From positions 1-23,401 of the IMG/VR virus record IMGVR_UViG_2667528074_000003: 23,401 nucleotides of DNA; one strand, 5' to 3'. The notes beneath the pieces were generated by a model, which was not told where the DNA came from, made no database searches, and saw only the letters and a program-made list of their open reading frames with translations. Shown piece after piece: positions 5,866-20,040 of the stretch; positions within the stretch are counted from its first letter, which is position 1; the number at the start of each line of letters is the position of its first letter. The position numbers and the translations under genes were made by a program. Origin of the DNA: a virus (lineage: Duplodnaviria; Heunggongvirae; Uroviricota; Caudoviricetes).

Positions 5866-7038
5866 TTACCGGGCTGCAGAAATCGCCGTTTTTCCATCGT
5901 ATTCTGCAAGGTAAGAGCCGTAATGTCTGAACAGCATTTCCGGTCCTTTGTGCCCCATCTGACCAGCCAGCCAGAACAGGTTAACGCCCTGGCTAATGTG
6001 CCGAGTGGCGAACGTATGGCGTGTCTGGTACGGATTGCGATAACGTACACCAGCCTTTTTAAGGGTCGGTACCCAGGCTTTTTTGCGGATCGCATCTGCG
6101 TTTGCCCAGGGAGCTCGAGTTTTCGGATCGCTGAATATGAAGTCGCTTTTTAGCGCCGTGTAGGGCTTTTGTGCCTGAAGAGCTACCAGCGCTTCGTTGT
6201 TCAGTTGTACTTTGCGAGTACCGGCTTTTGTTTTGGTACTTTTGATTACCCCGACTACGCTTGCAGTCTGGACATGTGCTGTGTTGCCGATGAAGTCTAT
6301 ATCTGTCCAGCGCAACGCGCACAATTCCGAGCTGCGTAGTCCGGTATTAAAGGCGAAACGAAACAGATTTTGCCATTCCGGGTAATGACAGGCGTCATAG
6401 ATTGCTGCTGTCTCTGCTGGCGTAAAAGGATCGACCTCGTAATCATCACTGCCTGGTGTGTTGTCCAATACGTGATACCGGCTGGCGCTGACCAGCGTGA
6501 CAGGATTTATTGTTAACAAACCATCGGTCACCGCTTCATCTATGGCGCTGCGCAGAAATGAAAGATTATTGCGGATCGTTTTCAGTTTTGTTTTTCTGCT
6601 GGCGATCCAGTTTTTGAGTACTGCAGGTGTCAGTTCTGATACATGAAATTTATGCAGTGCTGACAGTGCAGACAGGCATTTTTCATACCCTTTAATTGTC
6701 GATGGCGACAGGTTACGGTTCTGGCAGATAGTCAGGTATTCATCCAGGTAAGATTTTATATTTTTGTTTTTTTTCACTCCCCCGAACAGCTCCAGCTTTT
6801 GGGAGTTGGGGAAGTATTTTGCATATTCGAAGGTACCACCGATAATCTGATTTTTTATTTCTCCCAGCAGACGCTCGGCATACTTCACACCGCGCGCGTT
6901 TACTTCCATTCTGGAGAGGGGCTCCCGACACAGAACCCCTTTATATGTAAAAGTGATAACCAGAGTGCTACCAGTTTTATGCTGGCGAATAGTTACTCCT
7001 CTAGGGAGAGATAATGATCCTTGTTCTTTCTTGCCCAT
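5866..7038 (-). CDS. int: tyrosine site-specific integrase (lambda Int family)
   Basis: 390 aa; C-terminal catalytic region with RHTFATRHISQG and LAGQMGHKGPEMLFRHYGSY (conserved His/Arg and catalytic Tyr); GGAG RBS; adjacent to att core and transcribed toward it. Confidence 0.9.
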   Translation of the reverse strand: MGKKEQGSLSLPRGVTIRQHKTGSTLVITFTYKGVLCREPLSRMEVNARGVKYAERLLGEIKNQIIGGTFEYAKYFPNSQKLELFGGVKKNKNIKSYLDEYLTICQNRNLSPSTIKGYEKCLSALSALHKFHVSELTPAVLKNWIASRKTKLKTIRNNLSFLRSAIDEAVTDGLLTINPVTLVSASRYHVLDNTPGSDDYEVDPFTPAETAAIYDACHYPEWQNLFRFAFNTGLRSSELCALRWTDIDFIGNTAHVQTASVVGVIKSTKTKAGTRKVQLNNEALVALQAQKPYTALKSDFIFSDPKTRAPWANADAIRKKAWVPTLKKAGVRYRNPYQTRHTFATRHISQGVNLFWLAGQMGHKGPEMLFRHYGSYLAEYDGKTAISAAR

Positions 7039-14148: not shown

Positions 14149-14362
14149 TTATGCTCACAGGTAACACATGCAAGTACTCAATCGCTGGTTCCGCGATGGC
14201 AGAGGGCGTCGCGTCCACGTTATACACTGGGAGTCTGAAACACAGCGGGTCATTTACCTGCGTGATGGTTATTCGCATGAATGCTTCAGTCCGTTGTGGT
14301 TGTTTCGTCGTGATTTTGTGGAGTGTGAAGCGCCGCCAGAGTGACGGCGTAATGGTGGAAAC

Positions 14363-14671
14363 TTACACGAAGCGGATCTGGAGTTTTTTTCCTGTTGCGC
14401 GGGCAAATTTTTTCAGTGTGGAAAATGATGGTCCACTGACACCTGACGCCAGATTACTTTCCATTCTGCTGATGACAGTTGCTTTGGTTCCCATACGCTC
14501 AGCGATCTCAGCTTGGGTTAAACCAGCTTCTTTACGTGCTGCCAGCATTTCATCAAGCAACGCAAATTCGTCGGCGATGGCGTCGTATTCTGCTTTAAAA
14601 GCTGGATCCTCCATCCATTTATCAGCCATTTCATCATGTGTAATGGTTGGCGGATTACGTTTACCAGTCAT
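14363..14671 (-). CDS. HigA-like antitoxin (XRE HTH)
   Basis: 102 aa with HTH GLTQAEIAERMGTKATVISRMESN; immediately downstream of and overlapping (11 nt) the toxin gene, the toxin-first order typical of HigBA modules. Confidence 0.8.
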   Translation of the reverse strand: MTGKRNPPTITHDEMADKWMEDPAFKAEYDAIADEFALLDEMLAARKEAGLTQAEIAERMGTKATVISRMESNLASGVSGPSFSTLKKFARATGKKLQIRFV

Positions 14672-14990
14672 GCTTTACCTCCTTCATTCTGGTTTCAGCT
14701 TTTTGGCGTTCGGCTGGTGGGGTTTTCTGGGTCTTCTTGATGAAACTATGCAGCATGATGATGCGTTTTCCTGCCAGGGTGCAGTAAAAGACGCGTGCGA
14801 TGCCATCACTACCTTTAATCCGAAGCTCGAAAAGCCCGTTACCGAAAGCACTGGTATGAGGTTCTCCGAGATTGCTGCCGTATACCTTCATGCGTTCAAC
14901 AAGATGCTGGTATCGGGCACGCATACTCAATGGAAGCTGGTCGACCTCCAGCCTGACCTCTTCACTGTAGTATTCGATAGTGTAGTTCAT
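14661..14990 (-). CDS. HigB/RelE-superfamily toxin (phage gp49-like mRNA interferase family)
   Basis: 109 aa; characteristic motifs NGLFELRIKGSDGIARVFYC and IMLHSFIKKTQKTP. Confidence 0.8.
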   Translation of the reverse strand: MNYTIEYYSEEVRLEVDQLPLSMRARYQHLVERMKVYGSNLGEPHTSAFGNGLFELRIKGSDGIARVFYCTLAGKRIIMLHSFIKKTQKTPPAERQKAETRMKEVKHDW

Positions 14991-14996
14991 GAGTTA

Positions 14997-15020
14997 AAAC
15001 ATAACAAAATGGTTATGTTT
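14997..15020. promoter_or_regulatory. palindromic operator candidate upstream of the toxin gene
   Basis: Perfect 9-bp inverted repeat AAACATAAC-N6-GTTATGTTT ending 7 nt before the toxin start codon; overlapped by a TTGTGC-17-TATGTT promoter-like element on the minus strand. Confidence 0.4.
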
Positions 15021-15671
15021 GCACAATATATTGATTCTGCAATTTCGGGACGTTACACTGTTCCAGCACCTTATAAAGCGGGTGCCGGGATTTGCACCCC
15101 GGAATTGCATACGGCGATATATGACGCGCCAGCGTCTTTTTTATCGTCCGCGCTCACGCACGCCAGAATTATGGTGGGCTGGGTAGGGGAGCCGAAAGGC
15201 TCGCCGGTTTCCGTATGCGCCGGTAGTGCAAACCCTGTTCAGTCCGCCACCAGCGAGATTTGCACCTCCGGTGGTGGAAGTTATCCATTGCATACGGAGG
15301 CTGCCATCATGGCTACAGTCCCAACTTCCCCATTCCTCAAAATTGAGATCGTCAACGGTAAGGCCGTTATTTTTTCCCTGCATGTTGCCTGCCACTTCAA
15401 GCGCATGCACCAGAACATCGTTGACAAAATCGAGTATCTGAACTGCTCGCGTGAATTTTTTACCCGCAATTTCATTCCGGGTACTTATCACATCTATGGT
15501 GACTCTCTGCGTGGTTATTACATCACCCTTGATGGTCTGATGATGCTTCAGCTTGGGTTAAGTCTGCGCACAATGCGGTACTACGAGAGCTGTATTGATG
15601 CATTCCATGAAGCTGAAACCGTCCAGGTACATTCCGCTTTCCGTCGTCATCAACGGGAGGTGCACCTATGA
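15009..15671 (+). CDS. Rha-domain phage regulatory protein, tandem paralog 1 (start uncertain)
   Basis: C-terminal ~110 aa carry a Rha-like winged-helix pattern (SLHVACHFKRMHQNIVDKIEYL ... YYITLDGLMMLQLGLSLRTMRYYESCIDAFHEAE). ATG 15009 has no SD; an internal ATG at 15309 has a GGAGG RBS. The frame stays open upstream only because it is antisense to the TA genes. Confidence 0.55.
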   Translation: MVMFAQYIDSAISGRYTVPAPYKAGAGICTPELHTAIYDAPASFLSSALTHARIMVGWVGEPKGSPVSVCAGSANPVQSATSEICTSGGGSYPLHTEAAIMATVPTSPFLKIEIVNGKAVIFSLHVACHFKRMHQNIVDKIEYLNCSREFFTRNFIPGTYHIYGDSLRGYYITLDGLMMLQLGLSLRTMRYYESCIDAFHEAETVQVHSAFRRHQREVHL

Positions 15672-16333
15672 TCCGCTACCTGAATATTGATTCTGCACTT
15701 TTGGAACGTTACACTGTCTCTGCACCTTATAAAGCGGGTGCCGGGCGTGGAAACCCGAAATTCAATATAGAGCACAACCGCGCTCATGCGGTTTTTTCGT
15801 GTCATGAGCATTGCTACGCCCAAATTATGGTGGGGCGTGCAGGGCCAACTTCGGTTGGGCCGGGTTCTATGTTGACCGGTATTTCCACCCCTGTACGTCT
15901 CACCACCTATATGGTCGTGGAAAGCCTTGGTGGTGAGTTCTTTGAATTCAACATAGGGGCTGTCACCATGACTACCACCACTACCCACCCATTCCTCAAA
16001 ATTGAGATTATTAACGGTAAGGCCGTTATTTTCTCCCTGCATGTAGCCTGCCATTTCAAGCGCATGCACCAGAACATCGTCGACAAAATCGAGTACCTGA
16101 ACTGCTCGCGCGAATTTTTCACCCGCAATTTCATACCGGGTACTTATCACATCTATGGTGACTCTTTGCGAGGTTATTACATCACCCTTGATGGCCTGAT
16201 GATGCTTCAGCTTGGGTTAAGTCTGCGCACAATGCGGTACTACGAGAGCTGTATTGAAGCATTCCATGAGGCAGAAACCAGCGTGAATCATACCGCTTTT
16301 CGCCGTAATCAATGGGAGGCGCGCCATGTGTAA
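15668..16333 (+). CDS. Rha-domain phage regulatory protein, tandem paralog 2
   Basis: 221 aa; ATG overlaps the stop of paralog 1 (ATGA) and is preceded by GGGAGGTG; the C-terminal domain is nearly identical to paralog 1 with mostly synonymous differences. Confidence 0.65.
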   Translation: MIRYLNIDSALLERYTVSAPYKAGAGRGNPKFNIEHNRAHAVFSCHEHCYAQIMVGRAGPTSVGPGSMLTGISTPVRLTTYMVVESLGGEFFEFNIGAVTMTTTTTHPFLKIEIINGKAVIFSLHVACHFKRMHQNIVDKIEYLNCSREFFTRNFIPGTYHIYGDSLRGYYITLDGLMMLQLGLSLRTMRYYESCIEAFHEAETSVNHTAFRRNQWEARHV

Positions 16334-16559: not shown

Positions 16560-16780
16560 TTCGCCGCCTCGTTAATTCTCTGTATCACCGATACAACTGT
16601 TGCCCCCGTGTGGGGCAGTGGATTGCCACCAGCAACGGTCACGTTCTGCGGGTTTGCCTGGTCAGCACCGAAAGCCAGAAAGTTGTGTGTGAATTACTGG
16701 GGCGTAACTACACCATTAGCTATCCGTTGATGGCGTTTCAGTCCGGAAAAATGTTTAAACGCCTGGGAGGTGCCGTGTGA
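16556..16780 (+). CDS. hypothetical Cys-containing small protein (74 aa)
   Basis: ATGA overlap with the upstream gene; several Cys (CCPRVGQW, CLVSTESQKVVC); stop overlaps the GTG start of the replication initiator. Confidence 0.5.
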   Translation: MIRRLVNSLYHRYNCCPRVGQWIATSNGHVLRVCLVSTESQKVVCELLGRNYTISYPLMAFQSGKMFKRLGGAV

Positions 16781-17754
16781 GCCGGTTAATTAAATTGCTT
16801 GATCGCCCGATTGCTTACAATCCGGCTTTTGCAAAGCTGAAAGCAGGAAAAGTGCGATCGGGGCCGGTTGCGGCTGTTTTTCTTTCACAGCTTGTCTACT
16901 GGCATAACCGTATGGATGGTGGCTGGATGTATAAAACCCAGTCCGATATTTTAGCAGAGACAGCATTAACCCGCGATGAGCAGGAAACTGCGCGTAAGCG
17001 CCTTGTTGCGCTTGGTGTTCTGGAAGAAAAGCTACGTGGTATTCCTGCCATTATGCATTACCGGATTAATACTGAACGGCTTGAAGCACTGCTGATTGAA
17101 CAGGTAAAACCTGATACGAAGGCTGACAGCAACGAGTCCAGCGCCGCAAATATCAAGAATGTGGGAACGCCGCAATCTGAAGCAGGGCAATACCGCGAAC
17201 AAGTTTGTGGAAACCCCGCAAACTGTGGTGTGGAAACACCGCAAACAGTGATGCGGGATCACCGCAAACCGTCATGTGGAAACCCCGCAAACATTCATAC
17301 AGGAGATTACACAGAGAATACTCATGAGATTACTCATGAGACTAAAAACACTATTGGCGCATCCGCTGACGCGTCTGCACCAGCGCGTTCTGCCCGACAA
17401 GAATATTCACCGGAATTTGAACAGGCCTGGCAGGAATACCCCAAACGTGCTGGTGGTAATTCCAAGTCGGCAGCCTTTAAAGCCTGGAAAGCCCGAATCA
17501 GGGAAGGTGTGACACCCGAAACCATGCTTGATGGCGTGAGGCGTTATGCCGCCTGGGTACGTGCCACAGGAAATACCGGCACACAATTCGTGAAGCAGGC
17601 CGCGACGTTTTTTGGACCCGATCGTCACTTCGAAGATTTCTGGCAACAGCCAGCCGCTCCCGGAGGTGGGCGACAGCGACAGATAGATATCCTGTCTGGT
17701 CTTGGTGCCATGTCTGACGAATTCGGTAAATCCAGTGACAACTTAACATTCTGA
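16777..17754 (+). CDS. replication initiation protein (lambda O-like), with origin iterons inside the coding sequence
   Basis: 325 aa; GTG start with GGGAGG RBS; N-terminal winged-helix-like region similar in pattern to lambda O; central linker encodes six phased direct repeats; followed by helicase loader and helicase genes. Confidence 0.75.
   Translation: MSRLIKLLDRPIAYNPAFAKLKAGKVRSGPVAAVFLSQLVYWHNRMDGGWMYKTQSDILAETALTRDEQETARKRLVALGVLEEKLRGIPAIMHYRINTERLEALLIEQVKPDTKADSNESSAANIKNVGTPQSEAGQYREQVCGNPANCGVETPQTVMRDHRKPSCGNPANIHTGDYTENTHEITHETKNTIGASADASAPARSARQEYSPEFEQAWQEYPKRAGGNSKSAAFKAWKARIREGVTPETMLDGVRRYAAWVRATGNTGTQFVKQAATFFGPDRHFEDFWQQPAAPGGGRQRQIDILSGLGAMSDEFGKSSDNLTF
17170..17292. 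repeat. replication-origin iterons: six direct repeats with core CCGCAAAC at exact 23-bp spacing
   Basis: Core 8-mers at 17170, 17193, 17216, 17239, 17262 and 17285 (variants CCGCAATC, CCGCGAAC); best copies TGTGGAAACCCCGCAAAC; followed by an AT-rich stretch (17293-17345). Confidence 0.7.
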
Positions 17755-17764
17755 GGTGACAGCG

Positions 17765-18643
17765 ATGATGACGTTTAACCTGCGTGAACAACAAACAAGA
17801 CTACAGGCGCGGATGGATGAGTTACGGTCTGAGATGGCGTTTGCGGAGACTGGGGAAAAACCGTGGCCTTATCGTTCCTGCCGGATGTGTGAAGGTCGCG
17901 GATATTGCGAAAAACATGGCGAATATCACACGCATATTCTGGTGTGGGGGGATCGTAATGGCGAGGACAGAGAGAAAATTTCACACTGTCCTCACTGCCT
18001 GAGTGCTGAAATCAACGATGTGATTATGGAGTTGTCGTCCCTGAAGGCGGAAGAACTGACTGATAACGCCGGAATTGCACTGCGTTTTCGTGACTGTGAG
18101 TTTGAAAACTATCAGGAGATTAATCCTGACGCAGCCAGAAATCTTGCTGCCTGTCGTCGCTATGCCGAAAACTGGGCGGATGTTCTGGAGAATGGCACAA
18201 ATCTCGTGCTGACTGGCAGTTGTGGCACCGGTAAAAATCACCTGGCGGTTGCGATGGCAAAATATGTCATCCGCAACTATCTCGCCAGTGTTGAGATCAC
18301 CGACGTGATGCGCCTGACCCGGGCTGTGAAAAACTGCTGGCGGAATGACAGCGAAAAAACTGCGGATGAGGTGATTGAGCATTATGCATCACTGGATCTG
18401 CTGATTATCGACGAAGTGGGTGTCCAGTTTGGTAGCGCGGCGGAAATGGCCATTCTTCAGGAAATTATCAATGCCCGGTACGAAAGTATTCTGCCAACCA
18501 TCCTGATCAGCAATCTTTCACCGAAGGCGTTGTGGGCATACATCAGTCCACGTATTGCTGACAGGGTTACGGATGGTGGCCGTAACCTGTTGTCCTTCAA
18601 CTGGCCCAGCTACCGGGCACATACCGGAGGTGTGGCAGCATGA
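17765..18643 (+). CDS. DnaC-like helicase loader (AAA+ ATPase) with N-terminal Cys-rich region
   Basis: Walker A LTGSCGTGKNHLAVAMA (DnaC-type GTGKNHL), Walker B LLIIDEVG; CxxC...CPHC cluster near the N-terminus; RBS GAGGTGA before ATG 17765 (track GTG at 17756 is an alternative). Confidence 0.85.
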   Translation: MMTFNLREQQTRLQARMDELRSEMAFAETGEKPWPYRSCRMCEGRGYCEKHGEYHTHILVWGDRNGEDREKISHCPHCLSAEINDVIMELSSLKAEELTDNAGIALRFRDCEFENYQEINPDAARNLAACRRYAENWADVLENGTNLVLTGSCGTGKNHLAVAMAKYVIRNYLASVEITDVMRLTRAVKNCWRNDSEKTADEVIEHYASLDLLIIDEVGVQFGSAAEMAILQEIINARYESILPTILISNLSPKALWAYISPRIADRVTDGGRNLLSFNWPSYRAHTGGVAA

Positions 18644-20040
18644 TCAGCCAGAACAGTCCGGTCTGGCGTAACGATGATCTGGAAGGTGCTGTTATTGGCG
18701 CATTCTTTTTGCGTGGGGCAGATCCGGAAGTGATGGATATTCTGGCCACACTACCGGCGGACGTTTTTTCTGTACGACCGTACCGGGATATCTACACAGG
18801 CATCTGCAGACAGGCCCGTGTGTCCGGCGTGATTGATCCTGTGCTGTTGTGCAATGAGATGCCGGAACTTGCCCCGGTGATTACTGATACCGGGCGTAAA
18901 ACCTGGGTGAAGTCATCTCTGGAACACTATGTTGCAGCACTGCGACGCAATGCCGCACTGCGTGATGCAGAAAAAACACTGGCCGAAGCATTGCAGAAAT
19001 TACGTGATGCGCATACCTGTGAAGCAGCTGAAGATGCCCTGAAGGATGCTCAAAACATGATGGTCTCATTGTCGACCGAAAAGGGCATTATTCAGCCTGT
19101 ACACATTGATGATGTACTTCCGGAGGTGGTTGACCGTGTTGAATGCCGGAATCAGGGGCTGGAGAAATCCAGGACGTTGATGACCGGTATTGATGAGCTG
19201 GACGCAAAAACAGGAGGCATGGAGCCCGGCGACCTGATATTCATCGCGGCGCGCCCTTCGATGGGGAAAACAGAACTGGCGCTGGATATCATCGACAAAG
19301 TGACTGAACAGGGGCGCGGTGTTCTTCTGTTCACAATGGAAATGGCGAACATTCAGATCGGTGAACGCATGGTGTCTGCTGCCGGAGGAATGCCTGTATC
19401 GCGCCTGAAATCTGTCTCTAACTTTGGTGACGAAGACTGGGCGCGTTTCATTAAGGGTGTGGAGCTGATGACCGGACGCAATATCTGGATGGTGGACCAG
19501 GCGAACCTGACCATTGACGAGATATGCGCAACAACGAAACACCATTTGATTAAACATCCGGAAACGGCACTGGTGGTGGTTGATTATCTCGGGCTGATAA
19601 AAACCCGAACCACGGGGCGTCATGACCTTGCCGTGGGTGAAATCTCAAAGGGACTTAAAGGCCTGGCAAAATCCGGTGGTTTTCCGTTGATTGCGCTGAG
19701 CCAGCTTTCCCGCAGTGTGGAGTCCAGACCAAATAAACGTCCCATGAACTCAGACCTGAAAAATTCCGGAGAAATAGAGGCGGATGCTGACATCATTCTG
19801 ATGCTTTACAGGGATGAAGTGTACAACCCGGATACGCAGGCCAGGGGCATCGCAGAAATTAATATCACGAAGCAACGTAATGGTTCTCTGGGGACGATTT
19901 ACCGACGTTTTTATAACGGACATTTTCTGCCCGTAGACCAGGAAAGCGCACAGGTTCTTTCTACACCAATGCAGCCGTCCAGACCGCGAAGATACAGTAA
20001 CAAACGAACTGACAGCAGTAAGATGGAGCGTTTCTTTTGA
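18640..20040 (+). CDS. DnaB-family replicative helicase
   Basis: 466 aa; DnaB-like N-terminal domain; Walker A ARPSMGKTELALDI; ATGA overlap with the DnaC-like gene. Confidence 0.85.
   Translation: MISQNSPVWRNDDLEGAVIGAFFLRGADPEVMDILATLPADVFSVRPYRDIYTGICRQARVSGVIDPVLLCNEMPELAPVITDTGRKTWVKSSLEHYVAALRRNAALRDAEKTLAEALQKLRDAHTCEAAEDALKDAQNMMVSLSTEKGIIQPVHIDDVLPEVVDRVECRNQGLEKSRTLMTGIDELDAKTGGMEPGDLIFIAARPSMGKTELALDIIDKVTEQGRGVLLFTMEMANIQIGERMVSAAGGMPVSRLKSVSNFGDEDWARFIKGVELMTGRNIWMVDQANLTIDEICATTKHHLIKHPETALVVVDYLGLIKTRTTGRHDLAVGEISKGLKGLAKSGGFPLIALSQLSRSVESRPNKRPMNSDLKNSGEIEADADIILMLYRDEVYNPDTQARGIAEINITKQRNGSLGTIYRRFYNGHFLPVDQESAQVLSTPMQPSRPRRYSNKRTDSSKMERFF

Follow-up and report, generated by a model that had tools for sequence, protein, structure and literature searches.

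Several phages carry their origin of replication inside the gene of their own initiator protein. In lambda, the origin (ori) lies inside gene O and comprises four iterons plus an AT-rich region; six-iteron origins occur in lambda-like Shiga toxin (Stx) phages. The annotated origin of P22 lies inside gene 18, where iterons are followed by an A-rich region carrying ACAAAAGACAATA twice, and the phage's own DnaB-type helicase is encoded by gene 12, which follows gene 18. Phage SPP1 encodes an origin binder (gp38), a loader (gp39) and a DnaB-type helicase (gp40), and its oriL is located inside gene 38 (PMC6316719). Related layouts exist in iteron plasmids (RK2 with TrfA, F with RepE, and staphylococcal RepA_N plasmids with iterons inside repA), which combine a winged-helix initiator with phased iterons beside an unwinding element of short repeats (13-mers). 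Winged-helix Rep proteins bind both the iterons and the repeats of the unwinding element, the latter strand-specifically as single-stranded DNA (ssDNA; PMC4081077). Here, a comparable arrangement is described for a 23,401-nt stretch of Escherichia coli prophage DNA (IMG/VR record IMGVR_UViG_2667528074_000003; hereafter “the window,” meaning this whole stretch), in which an array of iterons at 23-bp spacing, followed by A-rich GAGAWTAC repeats, lies inside an initiator gene. We infer from sequence comparison that this array is, with high probability, the replication origin of a phiP27/Stx-phage-like E. coli prophage, placed inside its own initiator gene, where it would work like the origin of lambda.

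The resemblance to lambda concerns both layout and sequence character. In both phages, the origin is situated inside the initiator gene between two domains (codons 117-145 of 299 in lambda, 128-172 of 325 in the window), the gene is part of the rightward early operon, and the iteron is an 18-bp dyad whose arms are GC-rich and whose spacer is an A-tract (ATCCCTCAAAACGAGGGA in lambda, TGYGGAAACNCCGCAAAC in the window). The spacer AAAAC of the lambda dyad (TCCCTC-AAAAC-GAGGGA) resembles the AAAC(N) spacer of the window. Iterons are spaced 20, 24 and 23 bp apart in lambda and 23 bp throughout in the window, and on the same, downstream side both arrays adjoin a 48-bp, A-rich, purine-skewed and less stable segment (73% AT and 56% A in lambda, 65% AT and 42% A in the window, on the coding strand). 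In contrast, the iteron sequences are unrelated (TCCCTCAAAACGAGGGA versus TGYGGAAACCCCGCAAAC), the segment after the iterons of the window is a sequence-conserved repeat array, and the initiator is partnered by a DnaC-like loader and the phage's own DnaB-like helicase, whereas lambda P hijacks the host DnaB. P22 also has its own helicase, and gp18 shares PHROG families 345, 678 and 270 with the initiator of the window; it differs in its ATCGGTAAAAC-type iterons, in having no DnaC-like loader gene and in that the homology is remote only. SPP1 follows the same three-gene logic and order and has direct repeats together with an AT-rich unwinding element inside the origin-binder gene, but its host is Gram-positive (Bacillus) and it possesses a second origin, oriR. 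To our knowledge, SPP1 gp39 is not a DnaC/IstB-type AAA+ protein. Judged by these comparisons, the gene set of the window is that of SPP1, while the anatomy of its origin is that of lambda and P22.

Iteron array

An earlier note on this sequence had claimed six copies of an 8-bp core in exact 23-bp phasing. A recount confirms all six positions (CCGCAATC at 17170, CCGCGAAC at 17193 and exact CCGCAAAC at 17216, 17239, 17262 and 17285), with every spacing between 17170 and 17285 being exactly 23 bp. A weaker core copy with one mismatch, CCGCAAAT, is found at 17144, 26 bp upstream of the copy at 17170. The autocorrelation that the note had named as a check reaches 0.62 at lag 23 (17137-17297), compared with a maximum of 0.44 at any lag in 2000 shuffles. 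This signal is the strongest periodicity of the 23.4-kb window, in which no comparable 160-bp stretch exists at lags of 5-60, and Tandem Repeats Finder reports a period of 23 with 3.8 copies and a score of 113. The described spacing of about two helical turns likewise agrees with the 23 bp found here and with the spacings of lambda. The 8-mer recurs as stated, but the full repeat unit is larger, as CCGCAAAC forms the right arm of an 18-bp dyad, TGYGG-N5-CCGCAAAC. Aligned in register, the unit takes the form TGTGGAAAC(N)CCGCAAAC, and three units read TGTGGAAAC. The arms TGYGG/CCGCA are complementary (TGCGG/CCGCA), their centres lie 10 bp apart, and the spacer AAAC(N) constitutes an A-tract. In the whole window, TGYGG-N5-CCGCA, a pattern that matches both strands, occurs with zero mismatches only at 17160, 17206, 17229, 17252 and 17275, so that the array is made up of five full dyads, one unit with a degenerate left arm (17183) and an upstream half-site:

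17144-17151, plus strand: upstream half-site CCGCAAAT, a possible weak seventh site outside the 23-bp register, less conserved in relatives
17160-17177, plus strand: iteron 1, TGTGGGAACGCCGCAATC, positions mostly 0.9-1.0 conserved in 39 relatives
17183-17200, plus strand: iteron 2, CAGGGCAATACCGCGAAC, left arm degenerate, in the 23-bp register; relatives read TTGGTGCAAyCCCGCAAAC here
17206-17223, plus strand: iteron 3, TGTGGAAACCCCGCAAAC, full dyad in register
17229-17246, plus strand: iteron 4, TGTGGAAACACCGCAAAC, full dyad in register
17252-17269, plus strand: iteron 5, TGCGGGATCACCGCAAAC, perfect dyad TGCGG/CCGCA, holding the sole GATC of the origin
17275-17292, plus strand: iteron 6, TGTGGAAACCCCGCAAAC, full dyad, adjoining the candidate unwinding element

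No second copy of the dyad, which could have indicated a second origin, was found elsewhere in the 23.4-kb window. A reverse-strand CCGCAAAC at 17839 was considered as a further site and rejected as a chance occurrence, as it has no dyad partner. An Rfam scan of the origin returned no RNA family. This kind of origin is textbook material, with lambdoid phages differing in the iterons that their initiator genes contain. Neither the iteron sequence nor the GAGAWTAC motif or its 12-mer was found in the searchable literature, which leaves out most subscription journals, and a search of the same literature for phiP27 together with iterons returned nothing specific. The earlier description of the iteron sequence as distinct is in agreement with this result.

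Conservation of the array

As 23 is not a multiple of three, successive iterons fall in different reading frames, and the core is translated in turn as Pro-Gln, Arg-Glu, Asn-Pro-Ala-Asn, Pro-Gln, Arg-Lys and Asn-Pro-Ala-Asn. Relatives were collected as 44 IMG/VR loci encoding homologs of the N-terminal 120 residues with 73-98% amino acid identity, and the conservation of codon positions was computed on an alignment of 39 distinct genes. For the N-terminal domain, values of 0.91, 0.95 and 0.60 were obtained for first, second and third positions, which is the signature of a selected protein. The profile of the iteron array (17160-17297) is flat (0.855, 0.872 and 0.860), which reveals a constraint on the DNA, and the adjacent stretch 17298-17330 reaches 0.99, 0.93 and 0.97. 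With two or three exceptions, the 44 relatives have the core copies of the array at multiples of 23 bp. More distant relatives in Serratia and Pantoea prophages (50-55% amino acid identity) keep the 23-bp register, with a core that has drifted. Across relatives, position 3 of the unit alternates between T and C (conservation 0.77). The encoded protein segment is a predicted disordered linker, and the DNA signals would thus be written where the amino acid sequence probably matters little.

Initiator protein

The gene that contains the array and the two domains flanking it are located as follows:

16777-17754, plus strand: O-like initiator gene, 325 aa, with the origin inside (open reading frame, PHROG 270, PHROG 9773)
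16861-17100, plus strand: winged-helix N-terminal domain (aa 29-108), presumed to bind the iterons (AlphaFold2, Foldseek, PHROG, codon conservation)
17410-17610, plus strand: helical C-terminal domain (aa 212-278), presumed recruiter of loader and helicase (AlphaFold2; PHROG “DnaD-like helicase loader” and “primosomal protein”; co-occurrence)

Labeled in RefSeq as “DNA-binding protein,” the initiator matches the profiles of PHROG 270 (“replication initiation protein,” E 6e-64) and PHROG 9773 (“replication initiation O-like,” E 3e-51). Residues 27-112 match PHROG 678 (E 2e-7, columns 74-149) and PHROG 345 (E 9e-5, columns 46-106) over columns that lambda O and P22 gp18 cover as well, and gp18 also matches PHROG 270 (E 4e-9), the best family of the initiator. 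These matches suggest that its DNA-binding domain is remotely akin to those of lambda O and P22 gp18, which is to be taken as a reading rather than as proof. An AlphaFold2 model built with 27 homologs predicts a winged-helix-like order of helices (H) and strands (E), H-E-H-H-E-E-H, for residues 29-108 (predicted local distance difference test, pLDDT, 70-83) and a helical region for residues 212-278 (pLDDT 68-86). Residues 110-207 in between are modeled with very low confidence and predicted to be disordered; this segment spans exactly the iterons and the 12-bp repeats, which together occupy codons 128-190. In a Foldseek search against the PDB, all matches were winged-helix DNA binders, the best being the N-terminal domains of staphylococcal plasmid RepA proteins (4pql, 5kbj and 4pt7).

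GAGAWTAC repeats

Directly downstream of the last iteron, a second and shorter repeat begins:

17298-17345, plus strand: A-rich GAGAWTAC repeats with 11-12 bp spacing, candidate DNA-unwinding element (Tandem Repeats Finder, AT content, stability, conservation)

The repeats start at 17303 (GAGATTAC), 17314 (GAGAATAC), 17326 (GAGATTAC) and 17338 (GAGAC), corresponding to spacings of 11, 12 and 12 bp, and Tandem Repeats Finder assigns a period of 12 and 3.3 copies to 17303-17341. Within the 3.3-kb replication module (16777-20040), stability is lowest in the 40-mer at about 17306-17355. The earlier note had placed an AT-rich stretch after the iterons; an A-rich, less stable segment is indeed present, but it is only 65% AT (42% A on the top strand) and turns out to be a conserved repeat array. 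In the window, GAGAWTAC occurs only within this array, and no second such array that might point to another origin was found elsewhere in the 23.4 kb. The stretch is the most conserved DNA of the initiator gene. It includes the 20-mer TACAGGAGATTACACAGAGA, which does not vary among 38 distinct relatives, and it keeps a fixed distance to the last iteron in all relatives.

To follow the element beyond these relatives, IMG/VR was searched with the invariant 15-mer GAGATTACACAGAGA. About 100 chance matches are expected for 15 bases, and true matches were told from chance ones, which show an autocorrelation of about 0.35, by their upstream periodicity. As an exact match was demanded, the search is no measure of the conservation of the element outside the families found. 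Almost all matches with at least two further repeats directly follow an array with a period of 22 or 23 bp, whose autocorrelation is mostly 0.47-0.72, and 0.35-0.43 for some 22-bp arrays; the other matches are aperiodic. The upstream arrays consist of dyads with an A-tract, vary in sequence (TGCGGAAAnCCnGCA, GGCGGnAACCCCGCCAAC, TTGGCG..CGCCAA, TGCTCAAAATGAGCA, TGATCAAAATGATCA, GGTCAAAATGACC and GGACATGCAAGCATGTCC) and belong to differing N-terminal families. Successive copies of GAGANTAC are spaced by 10 bp (n = 5), 11 bp (n = 26) or 12 bp (n = 16). In the group of the window, the 15-mer begins at codon position 2, and in another group (L058) at codon position 1; the 11-bp period of a further locus (L079) crosses frames. 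Variable frames, a spacing of about one helical turn and the presence of several iteron types together indicate that the element is a DNA signal common to origins of differing specificity.

Four phage contigs of IMG/VR (L053, L061, L096 and L153; 32-46% GC) encode another initiator family with the motif NYNKAGFD.TKWYSI and carry 22-bp dyad iterons (e.g., TGCTCAAAATGAGCA and GGTCAAAATGACC), after which comes the same CAGAGATTACACAGAGA element. Given these low-GC contigs, the GAGAWTAC-type element seems to extend well beyond enterobacterial phages. In the A-rich regions of the lambda (L049, 620-667) and P22 (L172, 925-960) origins, ACAAAAGA is repeated at 14-15 bp. It loosely resembles ACAGGAGA/ACAGAGA of the window (an ACA-RR-AGA pattern), which may be due to chance or may reflect a feature of lambdoid unwinding regions. 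Within the element of the window, the self-complementary 8-mer CTCATGAG occurs twice at 17321-17340, 12 bp apart, and was flagged as a minus-strand terminator-like hairpin; relatives carry CTCAGGAG in its place, and the palindromes are therefore peculiar to the window phage. The element also holds an AGGAG sequence, and an internal translation start was considered and rejected, as it is followed by no start codon (ATG, GTG or TTG) in the frame of the gene, the two ATGs at 17324 and 17336 lying in other frames.

The position of the array and the analogy to the repeated 13-mers of oriC and RK2 oriV mark it as a candidate unwinding element, which is the reading preferred here. In IMG/VR, the GAGAWTAC array almost always stands directly behind iterons arrayed at 22-23 bp, independent of their sequence and of the domain that recruits the helicase, and in different initiator families it is read in all three frames. 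It was tentatively considered that it might constitute a distinct, sequence-specific origin module, in which three to four copies one turn apart serve as a common landing or melting site and as a crossover point and are recognized by something shared, e.g., a host factor or a conserved ssDNA-binding surface of these initiators. This proposal is possible, with the odds somewhat against it.

Probable exchange of origin and helicase modules

The initiator gene is a mosaic, and its C-terminal part is linked to the two genes that follow:

17295-17355: mosaic joint, defined by the overlap of both parental similarities; N-terminal and iteron similarity ends at 17355, C-terminal and helicase similarity begins at 17295
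17756-18643, plus strand: DnaC-like helicase loader gene (Pfam IstB_IS21, E 5e-16; PHROG 50 “DnaC-like helicase loader,” E 8e-85)
18640-20040, plus strand: DnaB-like replicative helicase gene (Pfam DnaB_C, E 3e-72, and DnaB N-terminal domain; PHROG 19)

Nucleotides 13-579 of the gene resemble the Salmonella phages F1055 and 118970_sal3 (74%), while nucleotides 519-978 resemble Stx phages and phiP27 (90-93%). As the two similarities overlap at 17295-17355, the crossover lies inside the conserved GAGAWTAC element. F1055 and 118970_sal3 share the iterons of the window (TGCGGAAACCCCGCAAAC, period 23) as well as its 12-bp repeats, here joined to another C-terminal part and without loader or helicase genes downstream. 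Conversely, Stx1_14040 has the same C-terminal part and DnaC-like and DnaB-like genes with another N-terminal domain, and at the same place (L003, 2390-2550) it exhibits three copies of GGGAAACCCCTC at 23 bp (GGGAAAC-type), followed by TACAGAGAATAC-type 12-mers. In phiP27 (L004, 2320-2500), about seven 15-bp TGAACCGTCAGAATC-like repeats and two GATCCGCAAG repeats were identified, and 12-mers are absent. These repeat regions bear no origin annotation in the phiP27 and Stx1_14040 records. They represent two further putative origin types joined to the same C-terminal domain and helicase genes.

The association of the modules was tabulated by tblastn over 51 loci. A C-terminal domain of the window type is accompanied by DnaC-like and DnaB-like genes in all six loci that have it, whereas none of the 45 loci combining the window-type N-terminal domain with another C-terminal domain has a DnaC-like or DnaB-like gene. 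Relatives with the same N-terminal domain keep the CCGCAAAC iterons despite their other C-terminal domains, and the iteron consensus changes with N-terminal identity:

N-terminal identity mostly at least 76% (few outliers at 61-74%): TGnGG..CCGCAAAC
N-terminal identity 67-75%: GGnGG..CCGCCAAC
N-terminal identity 51-62%: TGCGGAAAACCAGCA

Judging from these distributions, the iteron sequence is inherited together with the N-terminal domain, and the C-terminal domain together with the loader and helicase genes. In the classical lambda/phi80/82 hybrids, the N-terminal half of O reportedly sets origin specificity and the C-terminal half sets the partner. The pairing of iterons with the N-terminal domain and of helicase genes with the C-terminal domain in the window follows this same pattern of lambda O. 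Lambda, P22 and L each carry different iterons inside the initiator gene (PMC8022706, PMC7466680), which is gene 18 in P22 and L, and the principle of a divided N- and C-terminal role has been restated for these phages (PMC8022706).

The location of the joint raises the question of whether the GAGAWTAC array is a homology patch by which origin-specificity and helicase-recruitment modules are swapped, with the iterons still serving as initiator sites and melting taking place wherever the DNA is weakest. The exact overlap of the parental similarities on 17295-17355 and the modest AT content of the element speak for such a role, as does the observation that the N-terminal domain and iterons are joined at the element to at least three C-terminal types, and the C-terminal type to at least three N-terminal types. 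In addition, phiP27 lacks such repeats in spite of having the same C-terminal domain and helicase genes, which implies that the repeats are not indispensable for this module. A mere homology patch would, however, leave unexplained the 10-12-bp internal repeat, the constant spacing from the last iteron across all relatives, and the position and A-rich polarity shared with the unwinding regions of lambda and P22. As a full account of the element, this explanation is rather unlikely. Unwinding and use as a crossover site are compatible functions, and the candidate unwinding element may serve as both.

Evaluation as a replication origin

The features of a lambda-type origin are found together in the window, i.e., phased repeats, dyads with an A-tract, an intragenic place, a downstream A-rich segment, the pairing of N-terminal domain and iterons, and constraint at the DNA level, and the gene order of initiator, loader and DnaB-type helicase (SPP1 gp38/39/40 type) is present as well. 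The earlier note had spoken of a classic lambdoid ori arrangement; the sequence-level expectations of this description were borne out when tested, and origin activity is what we infer from them.

Several observations weigh against this interpretation. The AT content of 17298-17345 is moderate, and the segment does not belong to the least stable DNA of the window, where its instability reaches only the 95th percentile. The GAGAWTAC element is kept even though the winged-helix domains differ, and it may owe its extreme degree of conservation to a use as recombination joint. For the initiator, searches returned neither a Pfam-A family at E <= 0.01 nor an NCBIfam family at E <= 1 nor a sequence match in the PDB, and BLASTP and hhalign likewise gave no match to lambda O. 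The array thus lies in an O-like initiator as defined by PHROG, in keeping with the earlier note, but direct searches against lambda O came back empty. Because of these negative results, the kinship to lambda O is drawn from the PHROG profiles and from a weak hhalign match to P22 gp18 (residues 31-91 on gp18 45-107, E 0.004, probability only 8%). The AlphaFold2 model has a low mean pLDDT of 55, and the best Foldseek E-value of about 0.03 is weak and serves to assign the fold class, not the family. This weak structural match also sets the locus apart from the iteron plasmids, as does the fact that the window element is a phage in which nothing points to copy control.

A role in regulation or copy control is nevertheless conceivable, with the array acting in autorepression, titration, handcuffing or exclusion of related phages and the true origin located elsewhere in the prophage. 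Plasmid iterons serve copy control too, SPP1 has its second origin outside the initiator gene, and the window covers only part of the prophage; moreover, cloned lambda origin fragments reportedly inhibit related phages (PMC3349717). Against this stand the absence of a second dyad or GAGAWTAC copy from the 23.4 kb and the complete origin layout beside loader and helicase genes, as in lambda, P22 and SPP1 oriL, for which origin function was shown experimentally. This explanation is considered improbable.

Binding of host DnaA instead of a phage protein is more improbable still. The relaxed DnaA-box consensus is TTWTNCACA (reverse complement TGTGNAWAA), and TGTGGAAAC, as three units read, fits eight of the nine positions of the latter. 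However, the T/C variation at position 3 yields TGCGG, which breaks the CACA core and at the same time makes the dyad with CCGCA perfect, and a DnaA box offers no counterpart to the conserved right arm CCGCAAAC. Furthermore, the repeats change with the N-terminal domain of the phage protein, whereas DnaA is constant in these hosts. A DnaA-box cluster was rejected on these grounds, i.e., a fit of eight of nine at best, the TGTG/TGCG alternation and a sequence that follows the phage protein.

It is hardly credible that the repeats are a by-product of slippage or duplication in a disordered, low-complexity linker and have no function as DNA: the encoded segment is indeed predicted to be disordered and relatives differ in the number of copies (gaps of 46 or 69 bp), but with a period of 23 bp successive copies do not share a reading frame, relatives retain the register across a protein divergence of at least 45%, and the conservation at third codon positions (0.86) matches that at the first and second, compared with 0.60 in the neighboring folded domain, a value that also excludes very recent copying of the relatives.

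For the array as a lambda-type origin, the following mechanism is proposed. Initiator dimers would bind the dyad sites via their winged helix, with half-sites 10 bp apart from centre to centre. The sites are about 2.2 turns apart and would all lie on roughly one face of the DNA. Phased A-tracts and bound protein may wrap the DNA into an O-some-like complex. The adjacent GAGAWTAC element would then melt, aided by early rightward transcription of the operon and by negative supercoiling. The C-terminal domain would bring in the phage DnaC-like loader and the DnaB-like helicase, which in turn would recruit host primase and polymerase.

Genomic context

Upstream of the initiator gene, the window contains an integrase gene, an opposite-strand CI-like repressor gene, a Cro-like gene, an antirepressor gene and two genes for Rha-like regulators; the presence of the CI- and Cro-like genes indicates that the initiator gene is part of the rightward early operon of the prophage. 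Similarity to phiP27 and several Stx-converting phages covers about 40% of the window. In a megablast search of 5,426 complete E. coli genomes, the origin segment (17100-17350) was found in a single one (strain C5, bovine, 100% identical), while the surrounding 4.1 kb match 587 E. coli genomes. This N-terminal domain and this type of iteron occur widely among prophages of Salmonella, Citrobacter, Enterobacter and others. The origin specificity thus seems to be uncommon in E. coli and to have come in from a prophage pool of the Salmonella/Citrobacter type. A plasmid collection yielded only weak, phage-like matches to the origin segment.

The region upstream of the replication module contains a regulatory cassette in tandem duplicate (15066-15254 and 15722-15910; open reading frames to 15671 and 15668-16333). 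In each copy, a gene for a Rha-like regulator comes after an isrK Hfq-binding small RNA (63.7 and 61.6 bits) together with a C4 antisense RNA (80.5 and 82.4 bits). The duplicated cassette resembles the antirepressor control region of the P1/P7 type, present twice, and a 506-aa open reading frame at 14151-15671 that runs over the first copy is probably an artefact. The integrase gene is located on the minus strand at 5866-7038, phage similarity begins at about 7200, and the first ~5.8 kb of the window are probably host chromosome. As there is no tRNA gene in the window, the attachment site is not a tRNA within it.

Biological significance

These results locate a probable origin of replication for the phiP27/Stx-phage-like prophage group of E. 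coli and its relatives, where none is annotated and where the initiators are listed only as “DNA-binding protein” or “replication protein.” By comparison alone, they extend the rule established for lambda, by which the N-terminal domain goes with the iterons and the C-terminal domain with the helicase machinery, to initiators that escape Pfam and are accompanied by a phage DnaC/DnaB pair. Such knowledge could be used to predict replication incompatibility or interference between co-resident prophages and to design replicons consisting of an origin and its initiator. The element is otherwise of an ordinary kind, and the shared helical-turn repeat is the sole part that might repay experiments: its conserved place beside the iterons offers a lead on how these origins melt and how their modules recombine.

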